Source: Antedon mediterranea
Taxonomy: Eukaryota; Animalia; Echinodermata
Length of the DNA: 64,000 nucleotides
Reading direction: 5' to 3'
Assembly (NCBI RefSeq): GCF_964355755.1
Contig: NC_092678.1
Coordinates: forward strand, 20,167,365 to 20,231,364
Shown: positions 30,457 to 58,800 of the stretch, in pieces
How positions within the stretch are numbered: position 1 is the stretch's first letter
Layout: every line of letters starts with the position of its first letter
Notes under the pieces: generated by a model
What the model was told of the DNA's origin: nothing
Database searches by the model: none
Seen by the model: only the letters and a program-made list of their open reading frames with translations
Made by a program: the position numbers and the translations under genes

Positions 30457-33400
30457 ATGATGTATTTTTCCAATTTCATTATTCTTGTACTAATATCTTG
30501 GATTATTCAATCTTCACTAATTTTATCGAGTCCAGTTCAATCTAAGGTAGGTAGGGTTCATAAATAAAGTTTAATTAAGTTTATATTTATTATTCAACCT
30601 ATTGATTATTATGTTCTGGTTACAATATATGAAAGTGAGGAAAATTTATTGAAGGAGTGAACCTTTTAAGTTAATGACGTAGAACATTCCTGAAGTGTTC
30701 ACGCTCCGAGAATACAATTCTATTGTTTATATATAAAATGTTTTATTATAAATGTCGCACAACATTGCTACATACCTCACGTATTTTTCACCAACGGTGA
30801 AGCAGAACGGGCATAGTGAAATAAGCCTCCCTTTTAAAAAGTTGTACACGACTTTTTATAAGCAATTTTAAACATTAACATTAACGCAACAAAATGTATT
30901 ATTCATGATCTGTGTCCTGACTAACAATAAGTATATATTTCAGTGTAAGACTAGGTTAAACAGATACTAAATGAATGTACTGGTCTATTTCACTTATTAG
31001 TCTGATGATCTATTAGATGTATAATTAATAGTGAGTAGAAGTTGTGAGGAATCCTTTTTCCCCCGTGAGAATCGCCCACCTTTATTATAATGTATTCTCA
31101 TTATCAATTATGAACGTATTCAATTACAAATCGATTTAATGTATAATATTTATAAAATGTCATTCTTAAAACGATATAGTTGACTACATATTGGCATAAA
31201 GATAAATAGACTCTATAAAGATGAAGCTATAGGCCTCGAAGAACCGTTGATAATAAAATAATTATATATATTTTATATTTAAAATATTACTGTACAATTA
31301 ATAATATTTTATTGAAACAGTTTTATGAAATAAAATCAAGGTAGGTGTTCAAAATTGCTAGTTTTTACATTTTTACATTTTTTTTGTCCGCTTTCATAAA
31401 ATTGTATCCGTATTCATTCATTCATTCATTCACAAATTCCATATCACTTTTTCGTATTTTATAATTTTTCCAGAAAGCATGATTTATAATCATGTGTGAG
31501 AAATTCTTAATTTATAATGGTGTCAGATTGTTATGGTTTCCATACAAATCAACGCCATCTTCCATTCCTAAAAACCGTGTACTTATTGCTCGAAGAATTC
31601 ACCCTCAAAGTCACTAGCATTTTACTTGTTTAGGCTACTGTAGATCTGTTATAATTGCTATCGTGTGTTGGAAGTTTACATAGCTATCTGTTCCTGCTTG
31701 TTATTTTTTGAAAACGTAACTACTCTATTTTTAGTCGCGTGGACGCGACTCTATAGTTCACTATGTCGGTCGGCCTGTCGGTCGGTCTGTCTGTCTGTCG
31801 GTCCGGTATCACTATGCGTGTTATCGCTTTCTGACCTTATCTTGATATCAGTTTAATCTAGCTAAGTCAATTTTTCACAGTATATTGCTTATGGCCAGGA
31901 ATCGATGTGGTTATGTTATCACGGTGCGCAATAGAAAATTACGCGGTCTACGCACGATTTAACGAAATCACGTTTGTAATCATATCTTCACAACCATGAA
32001 TCACAATTAAATAAAATTTGGTACTCATAAATTTCAGGGCATAAATCATCATATGGCAATACAATTACGTGCGTAGTGCATGTAACGCATGCGTACGCGC
32101 GCTTAAAATTTTCAAAATTTATTTTCGATGAAATAAGACTACGTTTCAGGCAATTTTAAGCGTTTACAAAATTGCCATGAGTGCGCAGATTTTTGCGCGA
32201 GCACTGCGCGTTAAATGTTATTGCGCACTCTTTTTGCCCGATTTCTGTTTTCTTGACTTACTTTTCAACTAGAAATTACGTTATACGAGCACGTCAAAAG
32301 TGACAGGCTACGCACGTGTAAATTAAAAAAATATAAATATTTTTAAACATTTCAACATTTTTAAACATGTTCAGTAATTTCAGTCAGTATAGTTCACTAT
32401 GTCGGTCGGTCTGTCGGTCTGTCTGTCGGTCTGTCTGTCGGTCCGGTATCACTATGCATTGTAGCACGCGACTTAATGGCTGTTGGCCTTGTTTAACTAC
32501 ACTTTTACCTGCCAATTGTTTATAATAATTGATTTAACAACATTTTTATGTCTAGTATTTATTTATTTACCAGATGTCTAGAGCGCCATTTTCATGAATA
32601 CTGATGCTCAAAGGCGCTTCACATCATAAAGATGACCAAACAAATTGTAGTAGAAAAATACAAGATTACAAAAAACAACTCTGTCTTCAATTAAAGTATA
32701 AAGTATAACTGCATTTCATTAATACAAATATATTATTTCATTTGTATCGTAAAATAAGGTTATGACATAAATTCGTAAAATCCATGTATGGTTTTTAGAA
32801 TTCGGAAGTAATCCACTACAAATGACACACAGTTTTTATGTTAAAAACGACTGAAAGGGAAGCCAACAACAGTACAAGGATCTCGTCACAGGATCCATTA
32901 AATCACCACAATAGTCGGTTATTTGTGGGCTAGAGCTTAATATGTGTGTTACTTTTTTAAAAGTTGAAATTTAATCAAGTTCAACGTTTTGTATATTATA
33001 TCGTTACATAATTATATTATTGGTCAAAGGTCATATAGATAAATTATAGTTATTTTTTTTATATATAACTAAACTAAACTACATTGAGATAAATCTGATC
33101 CAGAACTAACTTGGTTAGTAAACAGCGACGTTTCACGACATATCCAGTCCAGTGAATTAGATTTTTATACTTACTACTACCTGGATGAATGACAATATAC
33201 ATATGCTGTGTTTGTGTGTTTGATACACGGTATATCTTTGTCAATCAATATATAAACAAGGGTGTACACGACTTGTTTCTGCTGCGAAATAAATTAATGA
33301 TTTAACACTAGTGTGTGAATAAATTACCCCCATCAGAAACAGGACACATTTTCTATTAACCGGTTAAATGGCAGCTAGAAACGGAAACACCCAATCGAAC

Positions 33401-36400
33401 GCCGATGTACAATTTGTATCTTCACATTTGCGAAATAAACTTTTATTTATAAATACGTACGTACGCGCTGCTTGAGTGTGCAAGAAAAGAAAGAAAATAA
33501 ACACTTCACAACTTCCTATAAAGAAAAAAGTCACTATAATATCTATCAAAATGTTTAAAGACTTTTTTCTTTGTCAATTCTTTTTTTTTATCTACAGGCG
33601 AAAAGATCTGATAACTGCGTAGGTGTTCAATGCCTTCCTGGGGAGCAGTGCTGCACGGTTAGAGACGGTTGTGGTGGAAAGTTGTGTGTTGGGTGTGCAG
33701 GTAATGCTATTAAATAATATCCTGTGAATACAATCACTGATGGTAATCTGTAATTAATATAGCCTTCCCTCTGTAACCAAATCAAGAAATTATCGAAATC
33801 TATGCTGCCTCCTGAATCTGGTGTAATTCACGCTGACGAGTGTTTAATAATTATAACATTCTTATTGTAGGCAGATTGTTAAAAAGTAGAAACATTATTC
33901 ACGAGACAAATAATTATATTATGGCCATATATATGGTCGTGTCTAGCTTGATTGTTTCTAGCTTGGTTGTGCCTAGATTGGTTGTTTCTAGCTTGGTCGT
34001 GTCTAGCTGGGTTGTGCCTAGCTTGGTTGTGTTTAGCTTGGTTGTTTCTAGCTTGGTCCTGTCTAGCTTGGTCCTGTCTAGCTTGGTCGTGTCTAGCTTG
34101 GTCCTGTCTAGCTTGGTCGTGTCTAGCTTGGTCGTGTCTAGCTTGGTCGTGTCTAGCTTATAGTCGTGTCTAGCTTATAGTCGTGTCTAGCTTGGTCGTG
34201 TCTAGCTTGGTCGTGTCTAGCTTGGTCGTGTTTAGCTTGGTCGTGTCTAGCTTGGTTGTGTCTAGCTTGGTCGTGTCTAGCTTGGTCGTGTCTAGCTTGA
34301 TCGTGTTTAGCTAGATTGTGTCTAGCTTGTTGCATTAACACATCTAATCAAATTCAACTCAACAGATAAAGAGTTCTCTTCTGGTGAAGTTGGAGTATTT
34401 TGCAGAAATTGTACCAAATGTCAAGATAATGGCATGGTCCAAGTTGAGGAGTGTACGCCCGGAAAAGACGCAGTTTGTGAATCATGTCCACATGGCGAAT
34501 ATATTACTAATGATGACACGTGCCAACCATGTGGTGACATCTGTGAAGGAAAGGAGTGTACAAATTGTAACATAACTCCAACACCAACCCCTTCGGAAAA
34601 GTCCACACCTGGTAAGTTTCAAATTGATAAATTGTCAAGTTGGTAACCAAAATAGTATTTCCCAAGAACGTTTAAACATTTTTTATTTCTTATTCAATCA
34701 TTATATATTATCATTGTATACCTTTTGTTTTATTTCTCCTCTGTATGTTTTCTTTTACAGCTGGTATCACTGGACTATCAACAGCAAGTCAAACGTCAAT
34801 GATAACATTCACATCTCTACCAAACATCGATAAACAAGGTTCATCATGGAAGAGTATATACCTTCTGCCGATAATTGGCGCTCCAGGTAAGGCAAACCTT
34901 TTAACAAATTAGTTCTCTGTCGACTTTTTGGCCATAAAAGTTCAAGTTCAAAATCGTTTATTGCAATCAATTAATTGTAACTGGATATTCATTTTCGACA
35001 AGTTATTAAAAAGAGTAAAACATTAAGACAAACAAGTTACACCAAAACAGTTTTATATATTAATACATTTATGAGTCAATACACAGAAATCAATGAAATG
35101 TTTAAAACATTTGGTAAAAACATGAGTAAAAACATTTTATAAAATGTATACATTTTTGGCCAAACTATTGAGATAGAAGAAGCAAGCTTATATTATATAT
35201 TTGAGAGAAAGTGTGTTTAACAAAACATAATATATGTATATAATTTTTAGAAAGGTAGCCTAATTTATTTATATAACTATTTATATTTCAATGTTTAGGG
35301 GTTGAACTTGATTATATTAAGTTTTATTTATGTTGTAATTTTTACTTTATATGTATAGGTAAATAAATAAAGAAAGAAAAAGGTTTGAAATAAATTGTTC
35401 TACCATTGGTGGAAAATTCAAAAGTGATGAATGTTGTTGCTCTCTCAGTCCTAAGATTATACCAATGGATTGGACAGGAGCATGGTTAAGAGGTAGTTTA
35501 GTCCTAAAATACTTTTTACAGAGATATTTAATAGTAGGCCTTGTCGGTCTTTAAGCGAACGAAATCCAAGAAATAAGAAAGCCTCTTCCTGTGGCAATCC
35601 AGTTCAATATATTTGTTCCGCTTTATCATTCTGACTGGAATATAATATGTATGACCCAGCAATAAATTATAACCACTTCTTTTTTGTGTGTACAGTATTC
35701 AACTCTTGTTTGTTTGGTAAAATAATAGGCCTAACGGTATGCTCCAATTACCTATGGTACCGAGCACATGCTTTCTTTTGGCTTAGTTCTGTTTAGTTTA
35801 GTTAGTATTGCCTTGTTTTCTACTATATTCTGTTTTTAAATATTTTGTTTAGTTTTATTTTAATTCGTTTACTATTAGAAAATGGATGTCTTTTTCTTTT
35901 ACAAAAGGTGAACTTTCTACTTTACAATTTCCTACTTTACAATATTATTACAGATGCTTTATTTATTATGACTTCCAACTAATCCAGACAACTACATCAC
36001 CACAGGTCTAAACTAAGAACAATCAGTTGCTAAGTTGGGGTAGTAAAAAGTATATAATACGGCCTTACCATGTTGAAATACCGGTTCTCGTCAGATCACC
36101 GAAGTTAAGCAACGTTTAGAGCTTTGATGGGAAACCATCTGAAAATACCAGGTGATGTAAAGAGCTGGAGTCCCATTAGGCATTTGAAAATCGCTAACAG
36201 AATTTTTTTTAATGTATTGAATTTCGATTTATATTTACTGTATAGTGTTTGTCATCTTTGTTATTGGCTGTTTGAAAAAGATTTTGTGCTGTTGGACAAA
36301 GGAGTCTCATGACTTTTGGGCAGATCATTTTTCATGTTGCTGTAAAAAATGTAAGTTTCTTATTTTTATTTATTTTATTTATTTATTCATTTCCCAACCA

Positions 36401-39400
36401 ACAGTGAGCTCATGGTTCACCACTTACAGGAGGGAACACAGACAAACACGTACATATACAATAACAAACATTAAACTAAACTACTAACAATGTTACGAAA
36501 CTTACGGAAATTATTACTAAAAATATCTAACTCAGGGTTTCTTAAAGTAAAAGAATTGTAAGTTTGACTAATCTACTAATAAAACCATTTTTTAAAACAT
36601 TTACTCTACTAAAAGGAATATGAAAAGTAGTATTTCTTCTAAGACGACGACTAGGGACTCTAAGATAAAAATTTAAAACAAAAATTGTTTATAAAATATG
36701 ATATTATATTTCGATTTATTACCAGGTATCTTTTTATTCTGAAGGATTTCAGTGATATGTATCATCATCTAGATTATACCATCTTCCCGTTTGTCGACAA
36801 ATACATATTCACAATCGTTGCTGCAATAAACATCTTTGAGAACATCAATTCAAAATCATTGAAAAAACAATTTATACTTTCATCTGTAGTTAGTGTCCTA
36901 ATACATTTTCCAGTGTGTTTTAATAGAACCAAAAATTTGTATAATAATTATCAATATTTTGACTTTAATAAAAGACCTGCTAACTCAATGTATAGCAATC
37001 TATCATGTAAACATGAAACAATTACAATTGTAGATATCATTTAATAATACCATTATCCGTTTATTTAAGTTTAACAAACCATTTTAACTTAACATAAACT
37101 GACCATGGCATTTCCTTTTTTTATATTATGAATATTTTGAAGTGTTTACACATTTCAAATATTGATCATTTCTTTTACAGGTTGTTGCATATTTATACAT
37201 GCACATGACACATCAACGAATAATAATTGTTGTTTTTTTTTTTTTTTTTAAGTAAATTTGTAAAAAGTGGATGTATTATTCCAATTTTTTATTTAATTAT
37301 TACATTTTAATCGAATTCTATTACATTTAGCAAATGGTGATTCTGAACAACAGTCTTTTGTTAATCCTAATGTCAGTTCCAAAAAGCAGGATGATGAGAA
37401 AACAGTGAATTTAGCTGTAAAACAGAAGTCCACAGAAGATCCTATCGGCTGTTCTGATGATCTTATTGTCTCCTATAAACGTAATATAATTTTATAATTT
37501 GAATACTGAATTCATATTAATCAGTTTTCCATTTAAATAGCTATAAATTTACATTAAATCTAACATTTTAATATTTACCCAACTTAGTATTTTATTATTA
37601 TCATTTTAGGTGAAGTTGAAAGAACCCAAATGGGTCACAATCCATCCAGCACAGGTAAAACTGTTTGATTTTTTTGATAAAGTCAAAAAGGTTTAATATA
37701 CCTATATATTTTTAAGTTGATTATTTAAATCAAAATGATTTTTTTTTCAATCAGATCAATTTGGTAAAGATGAATATGACATGCCTGCAAGAAGTAGGTT
37801 GATATTATCAATTTTTTTAAATAGTTTTTAATATTTCTTGTTTTATTTTTAAAAAAAACGAAATAACAAACCTTGATCACAAGAAAAGAAAGGTGTCCTT
37901 ATTTCCACGATGACTACATAAACTGAACAATTGCACAACAAATAAAAAATAAAAATAAAAGCCAAATAAGTTATTTCTTTAAGAATTAAAAAAAAATCAG
38001 TATTTCAGTTACAATTCATTCATTTTAAACTAAATAAAAAATAAATATCAAGATTATTCGTTTTTGAGAATAAGTTGATTTTTTTAATAAAATGTTTATT
38101 ACTGTTTTAGGAACTGAGATTCCTGAGCAAAATGTACTTATGAATCCTAATGGAATCCAACCAACTAATGAAAGTTCAAGTAAGGGTGTAAAAAAGGTTA
38201 TGAGAGGGCGTTCCTCCACCTCCAGCCTTCCTGATGTTTCTGAAGGCACTCCACTATCATGTGATCTTCCTGAATGGTGCAAACGTAAGAATTCAAACAT
38301 TAACAAAATTAAATATCTGTGGATATTTGGACATGATGGTATTTAAGTGTGTGGTTTTTATTATCGACGACTAAACTATGTCATGTTAATTCGTTGTGCG
38401 CATGCGGAAATGTGTCGATGGTCAGTTTAATGGTTTCTGGTTCATTCGACGACCAACGACTTGACTTGACTATAATCTTTTTGTTTGTTGCGTTTGTTAG
38501 TGGAATAATAATATGGTATTTCAAATGGCAAATATATATTTAACATAATTTGTTTTAAAGATTTGGCCACACTCGATCCTCAGTCGTCGCAAATCAAAAA
38601 CTCACTAATTGTGTATACGTTTTCATTTAGTTTACTTTCATATGTTTTTGTAGATGATATTACAATGGTTGGATGTGAAGATATATCAGACATCTCACGA
38701 CACATTGGGAAAGAAGTAACACGGATTGGTGGTATTCTCGGATTAACAACAGGTGAAGTGGAAACCATTAAGCATGACCACAAGTTCGATATATCGAGAC
38801 AGAATTTAGTGGTTTTACAGGAGTGGAAGAGAATGAAAGGTGTACATGCTACGAAAGGTGTTCTTGCACGTGCTCTTGAGAGTATTGGAAAAACAGAAAT
38901 TGCGATAAAATATTTATGGCCGGAGCAAGAATGGGATCAAGGTAGTTTAGTTTTAATGTTCTAAAACAGAGAACATTTTTACACAACAAAAAAGAAATAT
39001 TACGTTGGCAAGCACGTTGGTCAATTTATTCTTGAGACTATCCGAACAAGGCGTAATTTTCTATTTACTGTGAAAAAAAAAATGAGTTTTCCCGCCTCCA
39101 TCTCATGTGTTCCTCCTACTACGATACACAAAGCGGGGTTTTGGGGAACCATGCACTGGTACTGGTACTGGTTCAAATAACCGTCTCACAGAGACATCTG
39201 GTAGCCATTGACTTGAAGTTGGCATTTGGATGTGTTACTTTTAAATGTAGGCCTACAGTATGAGAGTGACTACTACCAAATTACACAGTCACAAAACAAC
39301 TTATAAAACAGTTCATATAACAGTTAAAACATGGCTGGGAATTATAAATTTCTGTTGAAGCAGGCTCTAATGAAGTTGTATCTAGTAAGTTGACTTTGTT

Positions 39401-42287
39401 TACAACTCTATCAAGTACTGATGGTATCTTCCGACCTCTTCGTTTACTTTGCCCTTCTGTAAAATTTCGACTACAAGAAATTTTCTAGCACATCTAACAC
39501 ATCAGCAGTAAAATATACACACACAAAAACAACAAAACATATCTTGATCACAAGGAAAATTTCCACAAACAATTGTATAAAACAATAGTTATTCTAAATG
39601 CCATAGAAATTACATATTAAATTATTTCCTTTAAAATAAAAAAAAACATATTTAGGCCTATAGTTACTTTATTCAAAATAAACTAAAAATTAATAATAAT
39701 AATACCAATAATACTAATAACAATAACAATAATATTAATATTATTATTAATATTAATAATAATAATAATATACATCTGAATTATACTATGTGTAGTAAAC
39801 GTTTATCTCAGTTGATGAGAACAAAACCTGATAAAATTTAATATGAATTTTAAATATTAAAATTGTATTACTGTTATTTTAGGGACTGAGATTCTTGATC
39901 CAACACAGCTTATGAATACTAATGGAAGTTCCATACACCAAACTAATGGAAGTTCAAGTAAGGGTGTGAAAAAGGTTAGGAGACGGCGTTCCTCCACCTC
40001 CAGCCTTCCTGATGTTTCTGAAGACGCTCCACTATCAGGTGATCTGCCTGAATGGTGCAAACGTAAGAATTCAAACATTTAAACAATTTAATATCTGGAT
40101 ATTTGGACATGATGGTATTTATAAGAATGATAGTGTGGTTTTGACTTTCGACTACCGAAGACCAAACTATGTCATGTTAGTTCATTTTGCGCCTGTTGAA
40201 ATATTGGGACGTGTCGAGTGTCAATAGTTGGTTTGATAGTTTCTAGGTCCAATCGACGACCGACGACACGATTGACCTATAAGTCGCTAGTCCTCGGTCG
40301 TCGCAAATAAACGGCTTAATTCACTTGTGTATAAAGATTGTTTTCATTTAGTTTACTTTCATATGTTTTTGTAGATGATAATACAATGGTTAAATGTGAA
40401 GATATATCAGACATCTCACGACACATTGGGAAAGAAGTAACACGGATTGGTGTTATTCTCGGATTAACAACAGGTGAAGTGGAAACCATTGAGCATGACC
40501 ACAAGTTCGATATATCGAGACAGAATTTAGTAGTTTTACAGGAGTGGAAGAGAATGAAAGGTGTACATGCTACGAAAGGTGTTCTTGCACATGCTCTTTA
40601 TAAAATTGGAAGAGGAGAACTTGCAAAGAAGTATTTATGGCCTGAGCAAGAATGGGATCAAGGTAGTTTAGTTTTAATGTTAATGTTCTGAAACAGAGAA
40701 CATTTTTACACAACAAAAAAGAAACCATTGTTTTGTCAGCGAATTCTGGTGGTATTACTTTGACAAGCACGTTGGTCACTTTACACTTAGCCTAACATTA
40801 TCCAAACAAGGCGTAATTTTCTATTTGCTGTGAAAAAAAAAAGTGTTTTCCCGCCTCCATCTCATGTGTTCCTCACAAAGCGGGGTTTTGGGAACCCAAC
40901 CCTTCTACCCATGGTTGTGTTTTAGCTCAAGTTATCTGGGTTATTGGTTATGTTCATATGTTATATGATTTACGTACAGTATAACTTCAATATAGAAAAA
41001 AATTATTTTTAATATAGTTACTTCAGGGAAGATTAAACATATTAATTAAACTTACTCCTCCTTAGTTTATTCTGCCACTATGGCATACTTTGTGTCTCTG
41101 CCTTCTTTATAAATGTCTGCTAGTCCGCATCACCGACGCCGTATCGTTGTTCAACACGGCAATTTGTTTTCCATCATTTTGAATTCTTTTTTTATATTTT
41201 ATTTAGGGATACTAATAACCACTACATTTTGGGGAACAAGAAAAAGTCAGGAGTTGGAAATCAATGATTCTGGTTAGTACTTGAGGCTGATGCAAGCTTT
41301 TCAAATAATTAAATTGATATTAAAAACGTTTTTTTTATTCATTATTTTATTTTTACGCCTAATGATTTATTTCCTGACTGCAAAAAGGGACTTATGATCT
41401 TAAGTATCACTGATATTAAGGGAATACTTTGGGCTTTCCTGTATATAAAGGAGAAGCAGTGCATGTTGTAATACTATAGGGATACCCTATAATTGCACAC
41501 TTTATTGAGTAATCAATTATTTTATTTTATAGGTTATTTTCGTAATAAAGACTGGACAGTGCAAAGAACATGGCAAGGGATCTGGAATATTATGTTAGAA
41601 AACAACTTTGGAAGTTTCAGACAACTAAAATTAGCTTGCGGCACTGTAGAGTTACAACAGCCTCACCTTAAATGTATACAACGATGTCCACTTTTTCAGA
41701 CGTCAATTCATGGTTTGGATCGAAATGCGTTAGGCCTATCCCCGATTTATTATTCATCATTCAAATATCTATTTCCCGTTAGTGTTTCACATGGGGTAAA
41801 CTGTTTATTCTCTGCTGCATCTGTTATCTACTATGGTTCAGAAGATAATTTTCTTGAGTTAAAAATACGAACAGTCGTTGAGTTAGCTTATCATAAAGAT
41901 TACTATTTGAATCAAGAAACACTTATCAATTGTATGGAGGCTGAGTATGCACTGACCAAGTTAGAAGAGAAAGATACATCCTTCAAATCTACAGATATAG
42001 AAGCACGCTTTGAAAATTTAGTCAGAAAAACATTAATTAAACAAAATGTTTTTAGCCTACAGGGAAACTCCATGCATTTGTTCGGCTTAGCGTCAGTTTT
42101 TAACTGTAACATTCAGTCCGTTTACCCTACGATTGGTGCTTCGCAACCAAGTCCTTTAAATGTACTTATCACTCCTCGTAAGAAGATAGAAAATCCAGCA
42201 ACAGTTTTCATTATGTGGTCTAGGCACACACCAAAAGCAGAATATGAACATTTTATTCCTAACCACTTTGTGCCTCTTTTTCCCTGA
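30457..42287 (+). CDS. TNF-receptor-like death receptor, gene 2, with two death domains and a C-terminal vertnin-like OTU domain (~884 aa). Exons 30457-30546, 33598-33700, 34366-34611, 34761-34886, 36246-36350, 37331-37480, 37610-37654, 37755-37793, 38111-38284, 38654-38941, 39883-40062, 40375-40662, 41207-41272, 41533-42287
   Basis: All introns GT-AG, phases 0 then 1 throughout, no internal stop; signal peptide, TNFR Cys repeats, TM IYLLPIIGAPVFVIFVIGCL, two death domains, OTU motifs. Read-through stops at 38964 and 40691 give shorter forms. Confidence 0.78.
31729..32494 (+). mobile_element. DINE-1/HINE-like element in gene 2 intron 1
   Basis: Full structure; inserted in a T-run; empty sites in paralogous sequence at ~45335 and ~48160. 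Confidence 0.8.
33935..34330. repeat. 15-bp minisatellite (TCTAGCTTGGTCGTG)n in gene 2 intron 2
   Basis: ~26 units; degenerate relative at 45070-45170. Confidence 0.92.
36058..36162 (+). pseudogene. 5S rRNA-derived relic (pseudogene or SINE3 head)
   Basis: TACGGCCTTACCATGTTGAAA..CCGGTTCTCGTCAGATCACCGAAGTTAAGCAACG..GATGGG..AATACCAGGTG.TGTA matches the 5S consensus with deletions; absent from the gene 3 intron. Confidence 0.8.
36360..36670 (-). mobile_element. LINE 3' fragment inserted 10 bp into gene 2 intron 5
   Basis: (TAAA)n tail and RT C-terminal relic; absent at the gene 3 site ~57492. Confidence 0.6.
41533..42287 (+). CDS. Vertnin-like OTU cysteine-protease domain exon
   Basis: HGVNCLFSAASV..GSE..LELKIRTVVEL..YYL; HLFGLASV..IQSVYP..N..PR..IMWS..F.PNHFVPL match VRTN-family OTU motifs as I recall them; strong acceptor TTTTATAG. 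Confidence 0.8.
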
Positions 42288-42853
42288 AACAACAATATAC
42301 ATTTCAGATTAGGAAGTCTAAAATCGTAAAACCGTAAATTCTTTTTTTTTCTGGCATTCCAGTTTAAAATATGTTATTTCAAAATTGATTGTGATTTTCG
42401 ATTTGTTGTAATGGTTGAGACTTTTACGCCTTATAATTAGTTAAATAAGCTTATATACTTTTCGATTTCTTTACAACCCATATTACTATTACTAGCCAAG
42501 CATTATATTGTTATTCTATAGTTTAAGTTTTATTATTTACTTTATTTATTTTTCTCTCAGCATTTTAATGATCGGAATTGTACTGTGAAGATTTAAAACT
42601 TTAGGGCGTATATACTTGCTAGTCATCAATGTTTTAAATACTAGAGTGCTAAGTGAACTGTATTTATGTGCAGTTTTCTTAGAATAATATAAAATGAGGC
42701 CTAATCCTTTTAATGTAATATCGTATAACAACAACTTCTTATTACACAATAACAAATACTGTTATGTACAGATGGGTTTCATTTACGTTTGACTTTCACT
42801 TACTTTTTTTGTAAATAAAAAGATTTATTTTTTAGATTGTTTAGTATTATTAA

Positions 42854-44319: not shown

Positions 44320-45180
44320 TACAATCACGCGCTACTTGATCCTGCCCAAGAGTGGGTGGGCAAGGAGAAAATGAAGGCAAAAAAACACTTCACAACTTTT
44401 TAGAAAGAAAAAAGTCACTATTATCTATTTAAATGTTCATGTTTAATGACTTTTTTTCTTTATCTTTTTTTATGTATAGGCGAAAAGATATCTGAGAGAG
44501 TGTAGAATGCCTTCAGAGGCGGCTGTGGAAAGGTGTGTGCCGGGTGTGCAGGTAATGCTATTAATAAAGAATATCCTGTGAATACAATACATTAATTGTA
44601 ATATACGGGTGGTAGTCTGTAATTAATAGGCCTACAGCCTTTCCTCAGTCAACAAATCGAGAAATTTTCGAAATCTAGGCTGCCTCCTGAATCTGGTGTA
44701 ATTCACGCTGGCTGGTGTTTAATAATTATAACATTCTCATTGTAGGCAGATTGTCATTTCCACTTGCTTAAAAAATGCAAAGGTTATTCACGAGACAAAA
44801 ATATTATGGCCATAATGTACAACTTGTAAAACCTGGCCTCTGACAGGATTTTGAACTAGGATCGATAGCCAAACATAATATACAAGAATCTGTAGTAACC
44901 CGGTAGCGTTTGTAAATCATCAATAAAAAACTATTTTAAAAGGCCCCTACATTCATGACGCTCATCATGCGGTTATATTGATTGCTGTTACAACGATTCA
45001 TTTGATAATAAAGATAGACATGTTAAACATTGAGCTACACTAAGTTGGCTAGGGTGCATGTTTTTTCTCTTTCTAGCATGTTGAGGTCTAGCCTGATTGT
45101 GCCTAGCATGAGTGTGTCTAGCTTGGCTGTGTTTAGTTTGGTTGTGTTTAGTTCGGTTGTGCCTAGCTTTTTTGTGTCAT
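44320..45180 (+). pseudogene. Orphan fragment of a fourth receptor copy (degenerate exon 2 at 44480-44551 with flanking intron)
   Basis: AG|GCGAAAAGA..GGGTGTGCAG|GTAATG homologous to 33598-33700 but deleted and frameshifted; intron homology on both sides. Confidence 0.8.
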
Positions 45181-46814: not shown

Positions 46815-49800
46815 ATGTGTTTTTCAAATTTCACTATTCTATTTGTACTAATATCTTGGATTATTCAATCTTCACTAATTTTATCGAGTCCAGTTCAATC
46901 TAAGGTAGGTAGGGTTCATAAATAAAGTTTAATTAAGTTTATATTTATTCAACCTATTGATTATTATGTTCTGGTTACAATATATGAAAGTGAGGAGAAT
47001 TTATTGAAGGAGTAACCTTTTAAGTTAATGACGTAGAACATTCCTGAAGTGTTAACGCTCCGAGTATACAAGTCTATTGTTTATATATAAAATGTTTTAT
47101 TATAAATTTCGCACAACATTGCTATATACCTCACGTATTCTTCACCAACGGTGAAGCAGAACGGACATAGTGAAATAAGCCTCCCTTTTAAAGAGTTGTA
47201 CACGACTTTTATAATAATATGAACACCTACCTTGAAGCAATTTTACATATTATGCGATGACATACGTAACAACGTAACAAATGTCACAGTTATTATTGAT
47301 TATCTGTGTCTGACTAACAACGCAACAATAGGTTTCAGTGTATGTGCTCTTTCGAGAAATAACAAGTATATATTTCAGTGTAAGACTAGGTTAAACAGAT
47401 ACTAAATGAATTTACTGGTCTATTTCACGTATTAGTCTGATCTATTAGATGTATAATAGTGAGTAGAAGTTATGAGAAATCCTTTTTTTCCACGTGGGAA
47501 TCGCCCACCTTTATTACAAATGTATTCTCATTTTAAATTATGAACGTATTCAATTACAAATCGATGTATAATATTCATAAAATGTCATTCTTAAAACGAT
47601 ATAGTTGACTACATATTTGGCATAAAGATAAATAGACTCTATGAAGATGAAGCTATAGGCCTCGAAGAACCGTTGATAATAAAATAATTATATATATTTT
47701 ATATTTAAAATGTTACTGTACAATTAATAATATTTTATTGAAACAGTTTTATGAAATAAAATCTAGGTAGGTGTTCAAAAATGCTAGTTTTTACATTTTT
47801 ACATTTTTTTGTCCGCTTTCATAAAATTGCATCCGTATTCATTTTGATTTCAATTCAAATGCAAACAAATTCCATATCATTTTATGTTTTTTTCGTATTT
47901 TATAATTTTTCCAGCATGATTTTATAATCAAGTGTGAGAAATTCTTAATTTATAATGGTGTCAATCAGATTGTTATGGTTTCCAAATCAACGCCATCTTC
48001 CATTCCTAGAAACCGTGTACCTATATAGCTCGAAGAATTCACCCTCAAAGTCACTAGCATTTTACTTGTTTACTGTAGATCTGTTATAATTGCTACTATC
48101 ATGTGTTGAAAGTTTACATAGCTATCTGTTCCTGCTTGTTATTGAAAACGTACTACTCTATTTGAACTAGTACACTTTTACCTGCCAATTGTTTATAATA
48201 ATTGATTTAACAACATTTTTAATTGTTTGTTAGTTCATTTTTATACTGGGTGACCTCTTCAGTCACAGACTGATCTCCCAGAGGGCCCAGTTGGTGATCA
48301 GTGGCTGTGATGTACTAATACACCGGGGTAACCCCCTACTCGTCTCGAAAGATGTACTAGGTTCTTTAAAGTGCACACGAGCTAGTTGTGTACACTGGAC
48401 CTACGGTTTATAGTCCTTATCCGAGAAGACTCGTTCTACCACCAGAACCATGGAGTGAGTGAGCCTCGAACCCTTGCCGATGTTATGGCTACGTAATTAC
48501 GGTTCCACTGTCTTAACCGCTCGGCCACTCACTCACTTAAGTATAGTATTTATTTATTTACCAGATGTCTAGAGCGCCCTTTTCATGAATACTGATGCTC
48601 AAAGGCGCTTCACATCATAAAGAAGACCAAACAAATTGTAGTAGAAAAATACAAGATTACAAAAAACAACTCTGTCTTCAATTATAACTGCATTTCATTA
48701 ATACAAATCTATTATTTCATTTGTATCGTAAAATAAGGTTATGACATAAATTCGTAAAATCCATGTATGGTTTTTAGAATTCGGAAGTAATCCACTACAA
48801 ATGACACAGTTTTTATGTTAAAAACGACTGAAAGGGAAGCCAACAACAGTACAAGGATCTCGTCACAGGATCCATTAAATCACCACAATAGTCGGTTATT
48901 TGTGCGCTAGACCTTATTCTGTGTGTTACTTTTTTTAAAGATTGAAATTTAATCAAGTTCAACGTTTTGTATATTATATCGTTACATAATTATATTATTG
49001 GTCAAAGGTCATAATAGATAAATTATAGTATTTTTTTTATATATAACTAAACTATATAAATTAATAAAATAAAGGCAAAATACTGAAAAATGAAAATGCA
49101 GTGGCTGGATCTCAATGGAGAAAAAAAAGCGAAAAGCTAAATCAACACTATAAAGTAAAACAGCCAGAAAATTTAGCAGAGCTTTCGGACAACACTAGCC
49201 CTTCATCAGTGCAAGTGAAGGTAGGCTACTTGGACAAGATAGATAGATATATAAGGCAAGCGCTGCCTGAGTGGACAGGAAAAAACGAAATAGAACAATT
49301 TAAGAGACATAAGGCTGGTGAATAGAGTAGTCCAGTCCCTAAGGGGAGAAAAAGGGGTGGGATGTTACCAGACTGGATACAATTTTTTCAATATAGCAGT
49401 TTGGTACAGTATAGTGTGGAGATGCCAAAACAAAGTTACTGGAAATCTGATTTGACCTCTGTGACCTCTGACCTCAATTTTTATATTTTTATATTATATA
49501 ACTAAAAATCACCATATCTTGACAACGCAGGGACATTTTACATTTATTTTTTTTTTCAAAATGCTTGGAAGATATATATTTATATTCGCTATAATGAAAA
49601 AAATTGTACGAAAATGGTCGCAACGGCTTTATTTTTCAGTTTGACCTTTGACCTTGATTGCCTAATATCTCAATAACACGCAATCTCAAAGATTTGAGAA
49701 TGGGCTCAAAATGTTAAGAAAATAAATCTAATATTTAGTCTAATAGAAACTTTTTTCAAAAAATTACCATAAATTAAGCTTTTTTGACCCTTGACCTCTA

Positions 49801-52800
49801 ATGTTTGAATATGTCAATATCTCGGTAACTATTTGTCCTAAAAAGTTCAGTTTGGTGTCAAATTGTTTAGAATATACACATTTATATTTGCTTTAACAAA
49901 ATATTTTGTCAGAATTCAATTGGAAATGTCATTTTGAGCTATGACCCATCGTTTTGCATATATTTAGCAATTAATAATCTATAAAAAGAGATCGAGAGAG
50001 GGGAGGGGGTTGGGGTGGATGGAGAGACACATATTTTGGTTACATGTTACACAAATGTTAAACTCTGTCTACACTATAACATTTTTATGCGACAAAAAAT
50101 GTGATGTGCCCATATATGGACACGATGAATGACATATGACTACCATATTTGGGCACATCACACCTTTTTTGTTAAACTAGTTTATAGTGTAGACAAACAT
50201 GTAAAAAATATGTGTCTCTCCATCAACCCAACCACCTCCCCCTCTCTCGCTTTTCCAATGCTACTGCATGCATCTATACACATCAAAATGGCCGGAATTG
50301 TACTGGAAAGTTTTTAGCTACATTTGAAAATAAGTCCCAGAGGAGGGGTGTATTGTAATGTTATCAGAATTATGGCAATTGTTTGTAATGGGAAAGTTTT
50401 AAAACTACATTTGAAATATTTGCTAATAATATCACATGCTATTAAAGATATACTTATTTTCCCCCTGACAAAAGTAATTTTGAAAAATATTTTTGTTGAA
50501 TATGCAATTTTAATGTCACACATAATAGTTTCACCAAAAATTGGATTGAAAAAAACTGATATAGTGCATACCCAGAAAAACTAATTCAAAGCAAAAAATA
50601 GGCTGGAAGTCAATGTGATTTTGGTTAAATTAACTGTTTATTTTGTCTTTAAAGTGATATTTACTCTATTTTTTAGATTAGCTCTTTGATTAAACACCTC
50701 TTTCAATGCAGTGAAGATCGCCTTGTCTTACTAATCTTCCTTAACTTCTCTTTGAACGATCGTAATCAATATTTGTTGAGGTATAATATTTCCTTCTAAT
50801 ATGGTAATGCCTGTTTTATTGAGTCAAATGCTTTCTGATAATCTCTAAATCAAAGATTTGGTGATATTCATTTCCTTTTTATTTTAGTTGATTGACAAAC
50901 TGTATAAGATGGTCCTACTGTATAAAGCCTTATATATTGGTTTATTTACTTCTAGTCGGTCTCTGATTTTGTTTTTTGATTACTTTTGTAAATTATTTGT
51001 GTACATGTGATAATGTTCGTTTGGTCGGTAATGGTTGATGTCAGTTTTGTCATGTTTTTGTGGATTAAAGTATAATTATCATTGCTTCTCTTAATTTCTT
51101 CTGGTTTCAAAGATTTTGTTGTATTGTGTTATGAGCTGGATGTGTTATTGCCTCATCAAGCCAAGATGGTAATTTTGACTGCTCACTGGTTTGTTTTCCT
51201 TTTATATTCCACTACAGTATGTTCTTGAAAAGAAATCAGCTTTGTAATTAATTTGTCTTTGATCCTTTTCAGATTTCTAATATTTTAAACATATGTTTTT
51301 CTTTTCTTCGCTTTTTCCTCACTGTTTCAAACATTTTATTTTTTCAGCATACTTCAAGCAATTAATTGATAATTAGGTCATTGTTTTATGAGTATCAAAT
51401 CGCATTGGTTAATTCTTCTTTTCTTTCTTTAAGATCCTGATTTTCTTTCTTTTTTTTAAATGTTATTTAACTTTAAGTTTATCTAATTTTTTGTTGATAT
51501 TAAGTGTTGCTCTTACGATGTAGGCCTACCATGCGATGGAATTATATATTGAAATTAAATTAAACATTAAGTTTTAAGAAAATTGTAAAAGGCTAAATAG
51601 GATATTGAATATAGTTCTGGTCCATTAAATCTATATTTTAGGTATATTATTATAAGTATGACACACGCACGCTTAACAGTATATCCTGGTCATACCTCAA
51701 ATTGGAATTTCCAGTAAAAATATGATAACATCTTCTATTAGAGCTAATATAAATGTTTACATTTTGAACATTTTGACACCAAGTTGAACTTTTTATGACA
51801 TTTGGTTACAGAGATACAGACATATTTAAACATTAAAGGTCAAAGGTCAGTAAATGACATTTCCTGTGGATTTGGAAGAACATGTTTAATTAGAGTATAT
51901 ATAAATATGTATGCTCTTAACAATTTGAAACAAATTTCAAGAAATTTTGACCAGTAGTTATTGAGATATAGTAAGCCAAGGTCAAAGGTCAAAACATTGA
52001 GAAATTACATTTCCGGTCGTTTTTTTAAAAAAAGTTCTATTAGAGCGAATATAAATATGTACCCTCTGATCTATTTGACACCAATATCATTTCAATTGTC
52101 AAACCCGTTGCGGAGATATGGCTGTTTAAGATACAAATATAAAAATTTAGGTCAGAGGTCACAGAGGTCAAATCAAATTTCCAGTAACTTTGTTTTGGTA
52201 TCTCCATATCATGTTCTATCAACATGCCAAAGGGCACACTTGTATCCACTATGGTAACATCATTTCCCCTTAGGGACTGGACTAGAGGGTGTAGATAGTA
52301 TTGGGTAGATATAAACAATTTTGGAACGACACTACAAAACAGAATATGGTGGTTAATATTGAAACTTAAATTTATGTAGTCAATTACCGATCTGGCAGTA
52401 TGTTCCTAATGTTAAGTTCAAAAGGTTTTGTGGTTTTAAGTTGTATTTCCCAGTGGTTTTCTTTTTCCTTTTGCGAGTTTTGTCTCTCCACTATCCATTG
52501 GTCTAAACTAAACTATATAGAGATAAATCTTATTCAGGACTTCCTCAGTTAGCGACGTTTCACGCCCTATCCCTCAGGGTCCACTGGATTACTAAATTTA
52601 TCTATTTCTAAACTTACTACTACCTGGAAAAATGACAATATATAGGCCTATCCGTAAACTAAACTATAGTTTTAAAATGCTGTATTTGACAGTATAGGTC
52701 TTCGTCAATCAATATAACAAGGGTGTACATGAGCCTAGTTGTTTCTGCTGCGAAATAAATTAATGAATGAATTATATTTCCAGAAACAGAATACATTTTC

Positions 52801-55800
52801 TATTAACCGGTTAAATGGCAGTTTGAAACGGAAACACTCAATCGAACGCCTTTTAACTTGTTACCGATGTTTTCCTACAATTAATTGTATATTCATATAT
52901 ATATAATACGTACGTGCGCGCTACTTGAGCTTGCCCAAGACTAGTGAGTCAAGGAGAAAGAAAGAAAATAAACCTTCACAACTTCTTTGAAAAAAAAAGC
53001 CACTATTGTCTATCTAAATGTTCTTGTTTAATGACTTGTTTTCTTTGTCATTTCTTTTTTTATCTATAGGCGAAAAGATCAGATGAAAAAGTCTGCGCAA
53101 ATCTTACATGCCCTCCTGGGCAGGGGTGCTGCACGGATAGATCATTAGATGTTTGTGACAATTTCGGGCCGTGTATTCCGTGTGGAGGTAATGATATTAA
53201 AGAATATCCTGTGAATTCAATAAAACATTAATTGTAGTATATACGGATGGTAATCTGTAATTTCAAGCTTCCCTCAGTCAACAAATCGAGAAATTATCGA
53301 AATCTATAGGCTGCCTCCTTCTGAATTTGGTGTAATTCACGCTGACGGTTGTTTAATAATTATAATATTCTCATTGTAGGCAGATTGCCCTTCGCTGCAT
53401 GGCTTAAAAAAGTGGATAAATTATTCACGAGACAATATATTATGGCCATAATATACAAATTGTTATGACAAAAACCCGGCCTCTGACAGGATTTTGAACC
53501 CGGAACAACCTAGGATCGTTAGCCTAGCATATAAATATGCCTATAGTTACAAAGCATCTCTAGTTACCTGGTAGCGTTTTAAATCATTAGAGGCCCGTGT
53601 GCATGACGTTCTGCATTTGCGAAAATGCTGTTGTAGGCCTATAGATTGTTGTTGCAACGGTTTGTTATGTTTGTTTCTTTATTAAATTTCCCACACACAT
53701 CAAATAATACAGTTGTACATTCTAATTAAACATAATTATACATTAGATTAAAAGAAAAATGTATGTGGATAGAGGTCAAATAACTTTAAGGCTGACCCCA
53801 TTTCAAATATTATTATACATATTATATTATTAATATTATAATATTATGTGATAAATAAAGATAAAAAAGAAGTAGAGAAAAGGATGAGTTAAAAGCCAAA
53901 ATAAATAAATAAGTAAACAGAGTAGTATTCGGATAGATATAGGCCCATGGGATAAAAAGCAAATATGCATATGGCAATATGTAAAATCAATAAAAATAAA
54001 AATATAATGAAAATATAATGGATAATACTAAATAGAAAGTTTTGAAAATGTTCTACTACGACTAAATGTTATCTCAAGAGTTACTGTGTCAGCATGTACT
54101 GTTCAACCTTATGGTGTAGGTATAATAAGAGCACTCTGAGATCACTGAAAGTATGTTATAACGTTTGCTGCTGAAGAAATTGTCAAGTCAAGAAATTGTA
54201 GTGCAAGCATGATGTTTGTCTTAAATGACGTCCCATCCTTTGATGAGTTCATTAGGAAGTTTTAAAAATCGCGTGAACGCAAGCAAGTAGTAATTAATTC
54301 TTTGATCATGGCCATTAATCGTTCTTAATGTGTCAAGAATGCACATACAATGGAATGCCTTGTTGCATTGACTTTATATATTTATACATTTTTGTTTTTG
54401 TTCTATATGAGCTCTTAGATTAAGATTTTTTCTTTTTTTTTCTCTATTTTGCGATGAATATATTATTTCACCATGATATTCGGAAATAAAAAGATGAATG
54501 AATGAATACATTATTTGAGATAAGGAAATACATAGGCAAAATAAATCAGATGGTGCATGTTAGGCAATTACTCACCATATGTATGAGGTTTCTTGATGTT
54601 ATCTATAATTTATATAAATTATGGTTAATACTGACATAGGCGAGCACAATGGAAAAACTTCGGTACAAATCTCCGCCTTGGATACCTACCTTGTCTATCT
54701 CCGATGTACCGCGAAACGTAGATTGGATAACATTAGTTTCCACTATTACGATATTGTTCCATATTTCTATCTTAGGAAGATATTATAAAGGGTTTTATAA
54801 CAACATTTTTGATTTCATCAGTATATTTTCAATTCAATTTCAATTGTACGCGGGGGTCGAAGTAATTTCCGGGTTCACGATAATATTTAAAATTAGCAAT
54901 GGATGGTTTGTTTTTCAATTCAATCGAAAGAGAATTCCAAAGTCTGGGACCAGCGAAACAGAATTACGTCTAATGGTTTGTTGTAAAAGCTTCGGTAACA
55001 TAATTATCAGCATGTCTAATATATGCTTGTCATATGATTTAACATATGAGGTGAAATAATTAAATTGGGAATATGATACATGAACAGAGCCGTTTTGGTG
55101 TTTATTAATATCGTAGATGTTCAAAACATTAAACTTAAAGAATTAAGGTTTGGTATGAGATGGAAATGATGAGCCATCACATATTCTCAAGGCTCTCTTT
55201 TGTAATTTGAACAGATTGTGCGGAGTGTATAAATTGTAACATAACTACAGCAATGCCAACATCAACACCAACACCATCGGAAATGTCCACAACGCCTGGT
55301 AAGTGTTTCAAACTGAGAAATTAATTGTCAAGTTGGTAACCAAAATAGCATTTCCCAAGAACGTTTAAACATTATTTCTTACTCAATCCTTATATATTAT
55401 CACTGTATAATTTTGGTTTAATTTTTTTTGTTTCTATGTTTTTTAACTACAGCAACGCCAACACCAACAACTTCGGGAAAGTCCCCAACGCCTGGTAAGT
55501 TTCAAATTAGGAAATTAATTGTCAAGTTGGTAATCATTAATTTCTAATATTTTGTTTCCCAAATATCAGCCATATCTCAAATATAATTTAAGGAATCCAC
55601 GCACAATTCATGTTCCATTTACCAAACTTACTAAGATTCAATTATTTATAAGTGTTGCTGGTTCTAAACTATGGAATGAGCTTGATGCAAACTTATTTAT
55701 ACAGTTTATAGAAATATTCTACTTTTTAAAAAGCATGTTAAACGTCACGTTTTATCTAAATAGAATTAATATTATTGGGTTTATAGTTTTTGCGCAAACA

Positions 55801-58800
55801 ATTCGTTTTATTAAATCTTCTTTTATTCATTCGCTGAATTGGTCAAACTTTTGAACTTCAAATTATTATTATATCATATTGTATCCGTCCCTGGGTCATT
55901 TTGAGACAAGGTCATTGAACTTCTAATTATGATCAAGACCGATAAGAACATTTCATTGTATCCAAATGTATTTGTTAACTTGAATTATTATTTATGTTGT
56001 TTTTATTATTGACAAATATATTTTTTTTTCCATTATATTATCTTCAAATTATTATTATCATTAATATTATGTTTATTATTGTTCAAATAAAGGTTACCCA
56101 ACAAAAATAACCAAAATAGCATTTCCCAAGAACGTTTAAAACATCATTTCTTACTCAATCATTATATTATCACTGTATAGCCTAATTTTGGTTTTATTGT
56201 TTTATTTCTATGTTTTCTTTTACAGCTGGTACCACTGGACTGTCAACAGCAAGTCAAACGTCAATGATAACATCCACATCTGTACCAAACATCGATAAAC
56301 AAAAGGAAGGTTCTTTATGGAAGAGTATATACCTTCTGCCGATAATTGGCGTCCCATGTAAGGCTATCTCTTTAACAAATTGTTCCCTGCCGTACAAGTT
56401 CAAGTTTAAAATCGTTTTTTTTGCAATCAATTAATTAACTGGATATTAATTTACGATCTATAGAAAAGTTATTAAAACATTAAGATAAACAAGTTACACC
56501 AAAACAGTTTTATAAATGAATACATTGTTGAGTCAATTTGGATATAATATATACAATATATAGAAATCAATAAAAAGTTTAAAACATTGGGTACAAAATG
56601 AGTAAAAACATGTTATAAAATGTATACATTTTTTGCCAAACCATTGAAATAGAAGAAGCAAGCTTTGAAATAAATTGTTCTATCATTGGTGGAAAACTCC
56701 AAAGTGGGTTTTGAATGTTGTTGCTCTCTCAGTCGTAACTTTCAGTGTGCCTTCATGTCCTGAGATTATACCAATGGACAGGGGCAGGGGTTAAGAGGTA
56801 GTTTAGTCCTAAAATACCTTTTACAGAGATATTTAATAGTAGGCCTAGTCGGTCTTTAAGCGAAGCGAAATCCAAGAGATAGGAGAGCCTCTTCATCAAT
56901 CCAGTTAAGAATTGTTCGCTTTATAATTCTTACTGTAATATGTATGAACCAGCAATAAATTATAACAACTGCCTTTCTTGCGTACAGTATTCAGCTCATG
57001 TTTGTTTGGTAAAATAATAGGCCTACGGTACCGAGCACAAGCTTTCTTTTGGCTTTGTTCTGTTGCCGTTGTATTGCATTGTTTTCTACTCTGTTCTGTT
57101 TTTAAATATTTTTGTAATATTTTATTTTAATTCATTCACAATTATAAAACTACCGATTACATGTACCTCCTTGGCGGAGGTAAATGAATGTCTTTTTCTT
57201 TTACAAAAGGTGAACTTTCTACTGTAAAATATGAATACAAATGCTTTATTTATTATGACTTCTAACTAATCCGGACAACTACATCATCACAGGTCTAAAA
57301 TAAGAAGTCAGTTTTAAAGTTGGTAAACAGTACAACAGTATTCGTTAATGTATTGAATTTTGATTTCTTTTTAAAGTGTTTGTCATCTTTGTTATTGGCT
57401 GTTTGAAAAAGATTTTGTGTTGTTGGACGAAGGAGTCACATGACTTTTGGGCGGATCATTTTCCATGTTGCTGTAAAAAATGTAAGTTTCTTATAGATTT
57501 AAAACAAAAATTGTTTATGAAATATGATATTTTATTTCGATTTATTATCAGGTATCTTTTAATCGTGAAGGATGGGAGGTAGTTATACAGATAACTAAAG
57601 TTATTAAGTATTTTAGATAAACATCTACATCATCTTCGACAGTCTTCCTTTCGTTGACCAATACATATTCACAATCGTTGCTGCAATAGACAGTTTTGAG
57701 AACATCAATTCAAAATCAATATAGAAAAAAAACATGTATACATTCATCTGTAGTTTGTCTGTGTGTTTTGATAGAACCAAAAAGTTGTATAATAATTATC
57801 AATATTTTGACTTTAGGCCAAAACCCCGAAAGTGAAGATGGAAATAAGGGTAATAAAAGACCTGCCAACTCAATGCTTAGCAATCTATCAGGTAATAGTA
57901 AAACAATTAAAATTGTAGATATCCTTTTATAAGTACCATTATCTGTGTATTGAAGTTTAACAAACCATTTTAACATAACACAAACTGACCATGGCATTTC
58001 CTCTGTGTAATGTAACAAGGCCATATACATATCTGCAGTCGCGTGCTCAAGTTAGTATTTGCCGACCGACCGACCAACCGACCCACCGTCATAGTGAACT
58101 GTAGAGTCGCGTTGTGTACGCGACTAAAAATATGCATTGGTAGTAACATAATGCTTTTATATATGATTCTTTTTTACACAGCTTAAATATTTGGTAATTT
58201 CTTTTACCGGTTGTTGCATATTTGTACATGCAAATGACGCATCAATGAATGGTAAAATAAGTATTTTTAAAATTAACTTGTAAAAAGTGCATGTATTGTT
58301 AAAAAAGTTGTATAATGATTAAAATGTAATCTTTTAAATTTCTAATTCTCTTACATTTAGCAAATGGTGATTCCGAACAACAATCTCTTGTAAATCCTAA
58401 TGTCAAAAAGCAGGATGATGGCAAATCAGTGAATTTAGCTGTAAAACAGGAGTCCGCAGAAGGTCCCATCGGCTGTTCTGATGATCTTACTGTCTCCTAT
58501 AAACGTAATATAATTTTTATAATATGAATACTGAATTTATATTAATCAATTTTCCATTTAAAATAGCTAAAAATGAATTGCAATTATATATTTACAATAA
58601 ATCAAATCTTTAACAAACATAAATTTAAATATCTACTCAACTTATTAATTGTAATATAAAAATGTATTATAATTTTAGGTGAAGATGAAAGAGCCCAAAT
58701 GGGTCAATATCCATCCAACACAGGTAAAACAGTTTGATTTTTAAAATAAAGTAAACAGGTTCATAAGGCCTATATATATATAATTGGCAAATTAGTGCTT

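Follow-up and report, generated by a model that had tools for sequence, protein, structure and literature searches.

A predicted TNFR-family death receptor with a vertnin-like OTU tail in the feather star Antedon mediterranea

A gene on the forward strand of Antedon mediterranea (30457..42287 in the window, by which we mean the whole stretch of 64,000 nucleotides that was analysed) is predicted to encode a TNFR-family death receptor whose tail is a vertnin-like OTU domain. We assign a probability of roughly 0.52 to the reading that this tail likely removes ubiquitin chains from the receptor's own signalling complex. The fusion of receptor, death domain, and OTU domain is itself very probably real, and the odds that the predicted domain is catalytically active are about even; that the receptor edits or binds ubiquitin is what we infer from its predicted domains and their relatives. 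Among the best 150 of 1586 profile relatives examined, the fusion appears to be restricted to feather stars.

Gene model and receptor half

The 14 exons of the gene, with AG and GT borders throughout, have a spliced length of 2655 nt, corresponding to 884 amino acids and a stop codon, and encode in order a signal peptide, a TNFR cysteine-rich region, a membrane helix, two death domains, and a C-terminal OTU-fold domain. Intron 1 is in phase 0 and introns 2-13 are in phase 1. An earlier sequence-only reading of this DNA had proposed 14 GT-AG exons that join without a stop; a donor after the second death domain (CAAG/GTAGTT, 40662) leading to a 66-nt exon (41207-41272) and then to a 755-nt terminal exon, all in phase 1; the motifs NCLF and NHFVPL in that last exon; and the lack of an obvious start of its own. 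At the level of the sequence, all of this is borne out: the 884 amino acids are free of internal stops, coordinates and phase are unchanged, the Cys codon is TGT at 41802 (amino acid 724, in GVNCLF) and the His codon is CAC at 42264 (amino acid 878), and the first in-frame ATG of the terminal exon (41592) lies 3' of the conserved residues DW and TW. Because the DW and TW residues upstream of this ATG are kept in 6 of 6 crinoid genes, splicing is most likely the entry into the terminal frame. That frame is open for 264 codons from stop to stop, compared with a maximum of 167 codons for any open run when 28-46 kb was shuffled 200 times.

Exon 1 (30457..30546, on the forward strand like all exons of this gene) provides the start codon and a signal-peptide-like hydrophobic stretch (amino acids 1-30; hydropathy 2.15 at amino acids 7-25), and a near-identical exon is found in a paralog at 46815. 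The basic site KAKR and a first cysteine-rich segment are encoded by exon 2 (33598..33700), a homologous segment of which is present in XP_071961070/69. The KAKR site occupies amino acids 30-33 (30541-33606 junction), after the signal-like stretch, and is a possible furin-type propeptide site; its counterpart in XP_071961070/69 is KVKR and that in the Anneissia receptor is RKMR, and the XP_071961266 model has none. The TNFR cysteine-rich region follows in exon 3 (34366..34611; Pfam TNFR_c6, E 3.3e-08, 34.2 bits against a cut-off of 29.4). A Ser/Thr-rich stalk and the first half of the membrane helix are encoded by exon 4 (34761..34886), and the second half, together with a Cys-rich juxtamembrane segment, by exon 5 (36246..36350), which has a 91% nucleotide match to the corresponding exon region of the paralog. 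By hydropathy only, the protein contains two hydrophobic stretches, one signal-like (amino acids 7-25) and one membrane-like (amino acids 179-197; 2.49), the latter depending on exon 5.

On the cytoplasmic side, exons 6-9 (37331-37480, 37610-37654, 37755-37793, and 38111-38284) encode a low-complexity linker ending in RSSTSSLP that is identical in RefSeq XP_071959969.1. Death domain 1 lies in exon 10 (38654..38941; Pfam Death, E 6.2e-08) and death domain 2 in exon 12 (40375..40662; E 3.5e-09), which ends at the CAAG/GTAGTT donor; both matches, like that to TNFR_c6, are above the Pfam cut-off. Exon 11 (39883..40062) is a duplicate of exon 9, and exons 11-12 as a pair are a recent duplicate of exons 9-10; the donor that follows the death domain must therefore already be used once within this gene. 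As predicted, the protein is a death receptor in its structure, with TNFR_c6, a signal peptide and a single membrane helix, and cytoplasmic Death domains. No TRAF site is conserved across all 4 complete crinoid receptors. The 66-nt linker exon 13 (41207..41272; TFWGTRKS, with a conserved FWxxRxS) leads to exon 14 (41533..42287), an intronless vertnin-like OTU domain with its stop at 42285-42287. The probable 3' UTR (42288..42819) extends to the AATAAA at 42814, as suggested by that signal and by contigs of a sequencing run (X1).

Crinoid relatives and the OTU fold

The RefSeq model of the gene, XP_071959969.1, has an end 100% identical to the terminal exon and joins exons 12, 13, and 14 in the same way. 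It is without exons 1-2 and the membrane exon (36246-36350) and contains no membrane-like stretch, and the database protein thus looks soluble. Since the model probably rests on the same assembly, it is not treated as independent sequence evidence. Two further Antedon genes (XP_071961070/69 and XP_071961266) encode a cysteine-rich region, a hydrophobic helix, one death domain, and an OTU domain at 69-70% identity. Two annotated isoforms of one paralog (P0002 and P0004) differ only in their N-terminal ~65 residues, a pattern that would fit alternative use of duplicated first exons to vary the tip of the ectodomain.

A profile search over 1.84 billion representatives yielded 1586 matches at E<=0.001, and the best 150 of these 1586 were examined. 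Apart from the protein used in the query, the best matches outside Antedon were three genes of Anneissia japonica. Of these, LOC117122087 encodes a complete receptor (signal, TNFR_c6, hydrophobic stretch, Death, and OTU), while LOC117122082 and LOC117122090 are partial models with a Death-OTU order. Anneissia belongs to the Comatulidae and Antedon to the Antedonidae. A Pfam scan of the best 150 of the 1586 matches detected Death in 6 (5 crinoid and 1 coral) and TNFR_c6 in 2, each of them from a crinoid. When the Anneissia death-OTU region was used in a word-indexed search, nothing beyond the two crinoids and a single Helitron-like protein was retrieved. The FWxxRxS of the exon 13 linker is conserved in 5 of the 6 crinoid genes, with an identity over this exon of 55-68% to the Antedon paralogs, 36-41% to two Anneissia genes, and 14% to the third.

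The crinoid OTU domains form one clade with an UFBoot of 100 in a 40-row subset that included 5 crinoid rows, and the same clade was recovered by FastTree with a support of 0.999 (145 of 152 rows, after removal of seven that were short or duplicates). The OTU core is invariant at 81 of 174 columns in the four complete proteins, compared with 30 of 93 for the death domain, and identity to Anneissia is likewise higher for the OTU domain (53%) than for the death domain (44%). The fusion likely arose once, before the split of Antedonidae and Comatulidae; it would have come about when a vertnin-like domain encoded by a single exon was captured at a phase-1 donor.

The same sequence-only reading had assigned the last exon to a vertnin-like OTU domain and had suggested structure prediction as a check; sequence, language-model features, profile, and fold now agree on this assignment. 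Exon 14 is 36% identical over 154 amino acids to a gecko protein from a vertnin-named cluster (pairwise E 4e-21), and vertnin is among the profile matches (E 5.1e-19 for P0088 and 7.1e-22 for P0039), with the crinoid clade grouping as sister to vertnin only weakly (UFBoot 77). In the Atlas, based on language-model features, an OTU-like cluster ranked first (0.94; 201 of 256 features), 44% of the members of which carry PF02338. Exon 14 alone is below detection for Pfam OTU, phmmer against the PDB with exon 14 returned OTUD1 only (E 0.57), and a 4-sequence profile matched nothing in the PDB, whereas a 95-sequence profile did match OTUs. Similarly, a 4-sequence alignment gave an unusable fold (pLDDT 36), while with a 95-sequence alignment the last exon was predicted to adopt an OTU fold with a pLDDT of 90.6 and a pTM of 0.90. 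Foldseek with this model gave 42 matches at E<=0.001 with Cezanne and A20 at the top, the neighbours also including VCPIP1, TRABID, and OTUD domains; all 26 structural neighbours among the Foldseek matches listed are OTU deubiquitinases or viral OTUs. In VIA-align, the model aligned with VCPIP1 at a Z of 13.7 (rmsd 3.7, 189 residues aligned) and with A20 at a Z of 11.9 (rmsd 3.6, 185 residues aligned; model residues 8-250). The structural match is near full length (8-250), and the whole of exon 14 is therefore one OTU-fold domain.

Many relatives of the domain are found in transposon-like proteins. Among the best 150 of the 1586 matches, 33 of 144 non-crinoid sequences carry transposase-like motifs, and this fraction is 27 of 40 among long relatives, whose motifs we take to be those of DDE transposases; Pfam identified one Helitron and one protein with DDE_1 in the same set. 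Many of them (P0010, P0014, P0017, P0019, P0021, and others) are transposase-like frames whose final part is a vertnin-like OTU in which DGNC and NHF are intact, and most of these frames have no Pfam label. A transposon source of the crinoid OTU domain is thus plausible. The crinoid OTU clade is not nested among the transposase-linked OTUs, no terminal repeats were found flanking exon 14, and no relatives of exon 14 were found in phage records and viral contigs. In the available part of PMC9741609, the activity of transposon OTUs is given as untested.

Alternative readings of the join and of the catalytic residues

The join could be an artefact of the gene model or a minor isoform, with receptors that stop after the death domain and an OTU exon that belongs to a separate downstream transcript. 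Several observations are consistent with this. Reading through the donor at 40662 gives a short tail with a clean stop (GSLVLMLMF*), in the neighbouring paralog the death-domain exon is indeed the last, and the RefSeq model is in error or incomplete at another place of this gene, where it has no membrane exon. Further, no contig across 40662/41207 or 41272/41533 was seen in run X1, which is presumed to be RNA and holds a GT-AG joint. Contigs of X1 cover 41622-42778, with 1-2 differences each, and end 36 bases before the AATAAA at 42814, and they do not cover 41207-41272, 41533-41621, or introns 12-13; these holes prove nothing either way, and DNA contigs also break near 41622-41648. Against an artefact, the same join is present in 6 gene models from two independently assembled genomes, both families conserve the peptide of the 66-nt linker exon as well as the residues that precede the first Met, use of the same donor is already required after death domain 1, and no free-standing crinoid copy of the OTU domain was seen by score among the best 150 of the 1586 relatives. 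We consequently regard a false or minor join as improbable.

If the fusion is real, the question becomes what the OTU domain does, and the residues around its predicted active site can be read in more than one way. Cys724 and His878 fall on alignment positions at which 131 and 134 of 137 family members, respectively, have the same residue; all 6 crinoid genes have the Cys, and the His is present in all 4 models that reach that far. Since 47% of core columns are invariant, the chance of keeping both residues is ~0.2, and their retention is only weak evidence for catalysis. As for a third catalytic residue, the position at His+2 is Val, as in 110 of 137 relatives, and FVPL comes after the His, as it does in A20. 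Of 48 positions conserved in the family, 34 are retained in the focal protein. The Cys loop, which is part of the proximal-ubiquitin site according to the available text of PMC3705208, reads GVNC in all 3 Antedon genes instead of the canonical DGNC: Gly and Val replace Asp(-3) and Gly(-2), which 123 and 132 of the 137 other family members retain, a deviation on which the sequence-only reading did not remark. Because of this departure we do not class the protein as a deubiquitinase, but only as one that likely works like one. A genuine fusion whose tail is a pseudo-deubiquitinase, serving as a scaffold or as a cap that binds chains and catalysing little or nothing, as with vertnin or OTULINL, would account for the altered loop, for its variation among the three Anneissia genes (NG, DG, and DD at -3/-2), for the replacement in 5 of 5 crinoid domains of two conserved aromatics that precede an LxxL helix (the residue aligned with the Trp of WAG in OTUD1 and a family Trp), and for the weak sister grouping with vertnin, which is classed as an inactive OTU homolog in the part of PMC10318531 available. 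However, both Cys and His have been lost in 3 of 3 vertnin-clade sequences and are kept in crinoids wherever they can be read, one Anneissia gene retains DGNC, and A20 and Cezanne are active enzymes according to the available text of PMC3705208 although they are without the WxG aromatic, an absence displayed for Cezanne in the profile alignment. A20 is also slow to react with ubiquitin probes (PMC3705208). On balance, a tail with little or no activity seems rather unlikely, and the odds of activity are probably higher for the Anneissia domains than for that of this Antedon gene. Alternatively, the tail may be a papain-fold protease that is active on something else (a ubiquitin-like modifier, an adaptor, or the linker of the receptor itself), or it may serve as an integrated decoy for microbial effectors directed at host deubiquitinases. 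A dyad that is kept next to changed residues near the substrate channel would fit these options, as would the fast turnover of the locus, where exons have been duplicated, one exon has an orphan copy, and there are paralogs without OTU. We hold both to be improbable: the listed structural neighbours were OTU deubiquitinases or viral OTUs without exception, and the OTU domain is more conserved than the death domain, unlike what would be expected of a fast-evolving decoy.

Proposed signalling, known systems, and neighbouring genes

Ubiquitin chains determine whether a death receptor signals for survival, for inflammation, or for death, and the enzymes that write or erase these chains are normally recruited. 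At TNFR1, death domains recruit adaptors, and ubiquitin chains on those adaptors decide between NF-kB and caspase signalling; A20, Cezanne, OTULIN, and CYLD remove such chains as separate, recruited proteins. The first three are described as NF-kB regulators in the available text of PMC3705208. In the reading that we prefer, namely a receptor that likely trims chains in its own complex, ligand would cluster the crinoid receptor, and its death domains would recruit adaptors that are then polyubiquitinated, as at vertebrate TNFR1. The OTU domain, tethered ~25 residues behind the death domain, would be at the chains whenever the receptor clusters and would cut or mask them, so that NF-kB output would be damped or the complex tipped towards caspase activation. 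The outcome would be a self-limiting or death-biased receptor. A weak enzyme might suffice when tethered in this way, which could explain the relaxed Cys loop. In addition, OTU-less paralogs with nearly the same death domain could act as unedited partners in a paired system. Taken as a whole, a class of crinoid receptor deubiquitinases that combines a catalytically active OTU, a switch by ligand clustering, and pairing with OTU-less sister receptors is a tentative proposal, to which we give somewhat less than even odds.

The crinoid gene shares with TNFR death receptors (TNFR1, Fas, p75NTR, EDAR, and invertebrate CRD-TM-DD proteins) a signal peptide, TNFR_c6, one membrane helix, and a cytoplasmic death domain, but differs from them by the 250-aa OTU-fold domain after the death domain and, in this Antedon copy, by two death domains; its ectodomain is short, with one Pfam TNFR_c6 match and flanking Cys-rich segments. 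Membrane-anchored deubiquitinases such as USP19 and USP30 exist, but these are not ligand receptors. TNFRs are described as non-enzymatic in the part of bioRxiv 10.1101/2021.12.26.474206 available. Compared with vertnin (VRTN) and invertebrate vertnin-like OTUs, the crinoid domain has the motifs MWS and NHF[V] in common, but in vertnin the domain is N-terminal, precedes helix-turn-helix repeats, and is without the Cys and His, whereas in crinoids it forms a receptor tail and keeps the dyad. In most long vertnin-like relatives, the OTU domain is at the end of transposase-like or Helitron proteins rather than at the tail of a surface receptor. The A20-like OTUs (A20, Cezanne/OTUD7B, TRABID, and VCPIP1) give the best structural matches, which span almost the entire domain with its N-terminal helices, and A20 shares HFVPL after the His with the Antedon domain; yet identity is 12-20%, these enzymes are cytosolic proteins that have to be recruited, their loop reads DGNC against GVNC in Antedon, and the receptor described here has no zinc fingers. 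In the coral Montipora foliosa (XP_068700046.1/XP_068700045.1; P0052/P0163), a vertnin-like OTU and death domains are combined in one chain as in crinoids, but the OTU comes first, there is no TNFR_c6 match, and the Cys loop is the canonical DGNC. The coral OTU falls in a different clade, and the fusion is therefore likely independent, which suggests that the pairing of OTU and death domains is useful and may have arisen twice.

The sequence-only reading knew of no such architecture in the literature, and no description of a TNFR-death-OTU protein was found in the literature searched, which consisted largely of papers outside subscription and included the available parts of PMC4979521, PMC8195603, PMC10362595, PMC13673367, and bioRxiv 10.1101/2024.07.27.603686; database records of the crinoid fusion proteins are named 'uncharacterized protein'. 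This is thus apparently an undescribed and conserved fusion of receptor and enzyme domain. A hard-wired OTU that has been kept in two families and expanded is a natural experiment on tethered chain editing and an example of domain gain by echinoderm immune receptors. It also offers an entry into the vertnin-like OTU family, which comprises >1500 clusters and for which no biochemistry was found in the literature searched. If the tentative proposal of crinoid receptor deubiquitinases is true, these proteins would be a receptor-enzyme class that parallels receptor kinases and phosphatases but acts on ubiquitin, and theirs would be the first demonstrated activity for the vertnin-like OTU family; if the domain is inactive, they would still be a conserved new receptor architecture.

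A candidate for an unedited partner receptor is present in the same window. This tandem paralog without OTU (46815..61246, forward strand) has 11 exons that encode 423 amino acids with one death domain and ends in EWKQS*. Its ectodomain is short, most of the cysteine-rich region being missing, while its membrane region is near-identical to that of the 30457-42287 gene. The death domain of the paralog is 93% identical to death domain 2, and a stop is found where the 30457-42287 gene splices on; similarity between the two genes ends at that stop, and the paralog locus could continue past the end of the window. A spliced X1 contig was considered as a product of the OTU-bearing gene and rejected, as 24 of the 26 exonic differences checked are the paralog's letters (the 26 were taken from 40 rows, and 26 further rows lay outside the check); the paralog is thus probably transcribed. 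Between the two genes, at 44481-44551 on the forward strand, exon 2 has a degenerate orphan copy that is interrupted by an in-frame stop.

The window holds a third TNFR gene, more distant and without OTU (9014-25795, forward strand), with a weak death-domain match (Pfam E 0.0056); one of its cytoplasmic exons, near 23852-24158, is rich in repeats. An intron of this gene holds an LTR retrotransposon on the reverse strand (16853-22886) with 442-nt LTRs that are 99% identical. The element has one frame of 1587 amino acids with SCAN, integrase, and then reverse transcriptase and RNase H, and we take this order of integrase before reverse transcriptase, together with SCAN, to be like that of Gmr1-like gypsy elements. 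Broken frames on the reverse strand at 4512-6848 resemble, by eye, the reverse transcriptase of non-LTR retrotransposons.
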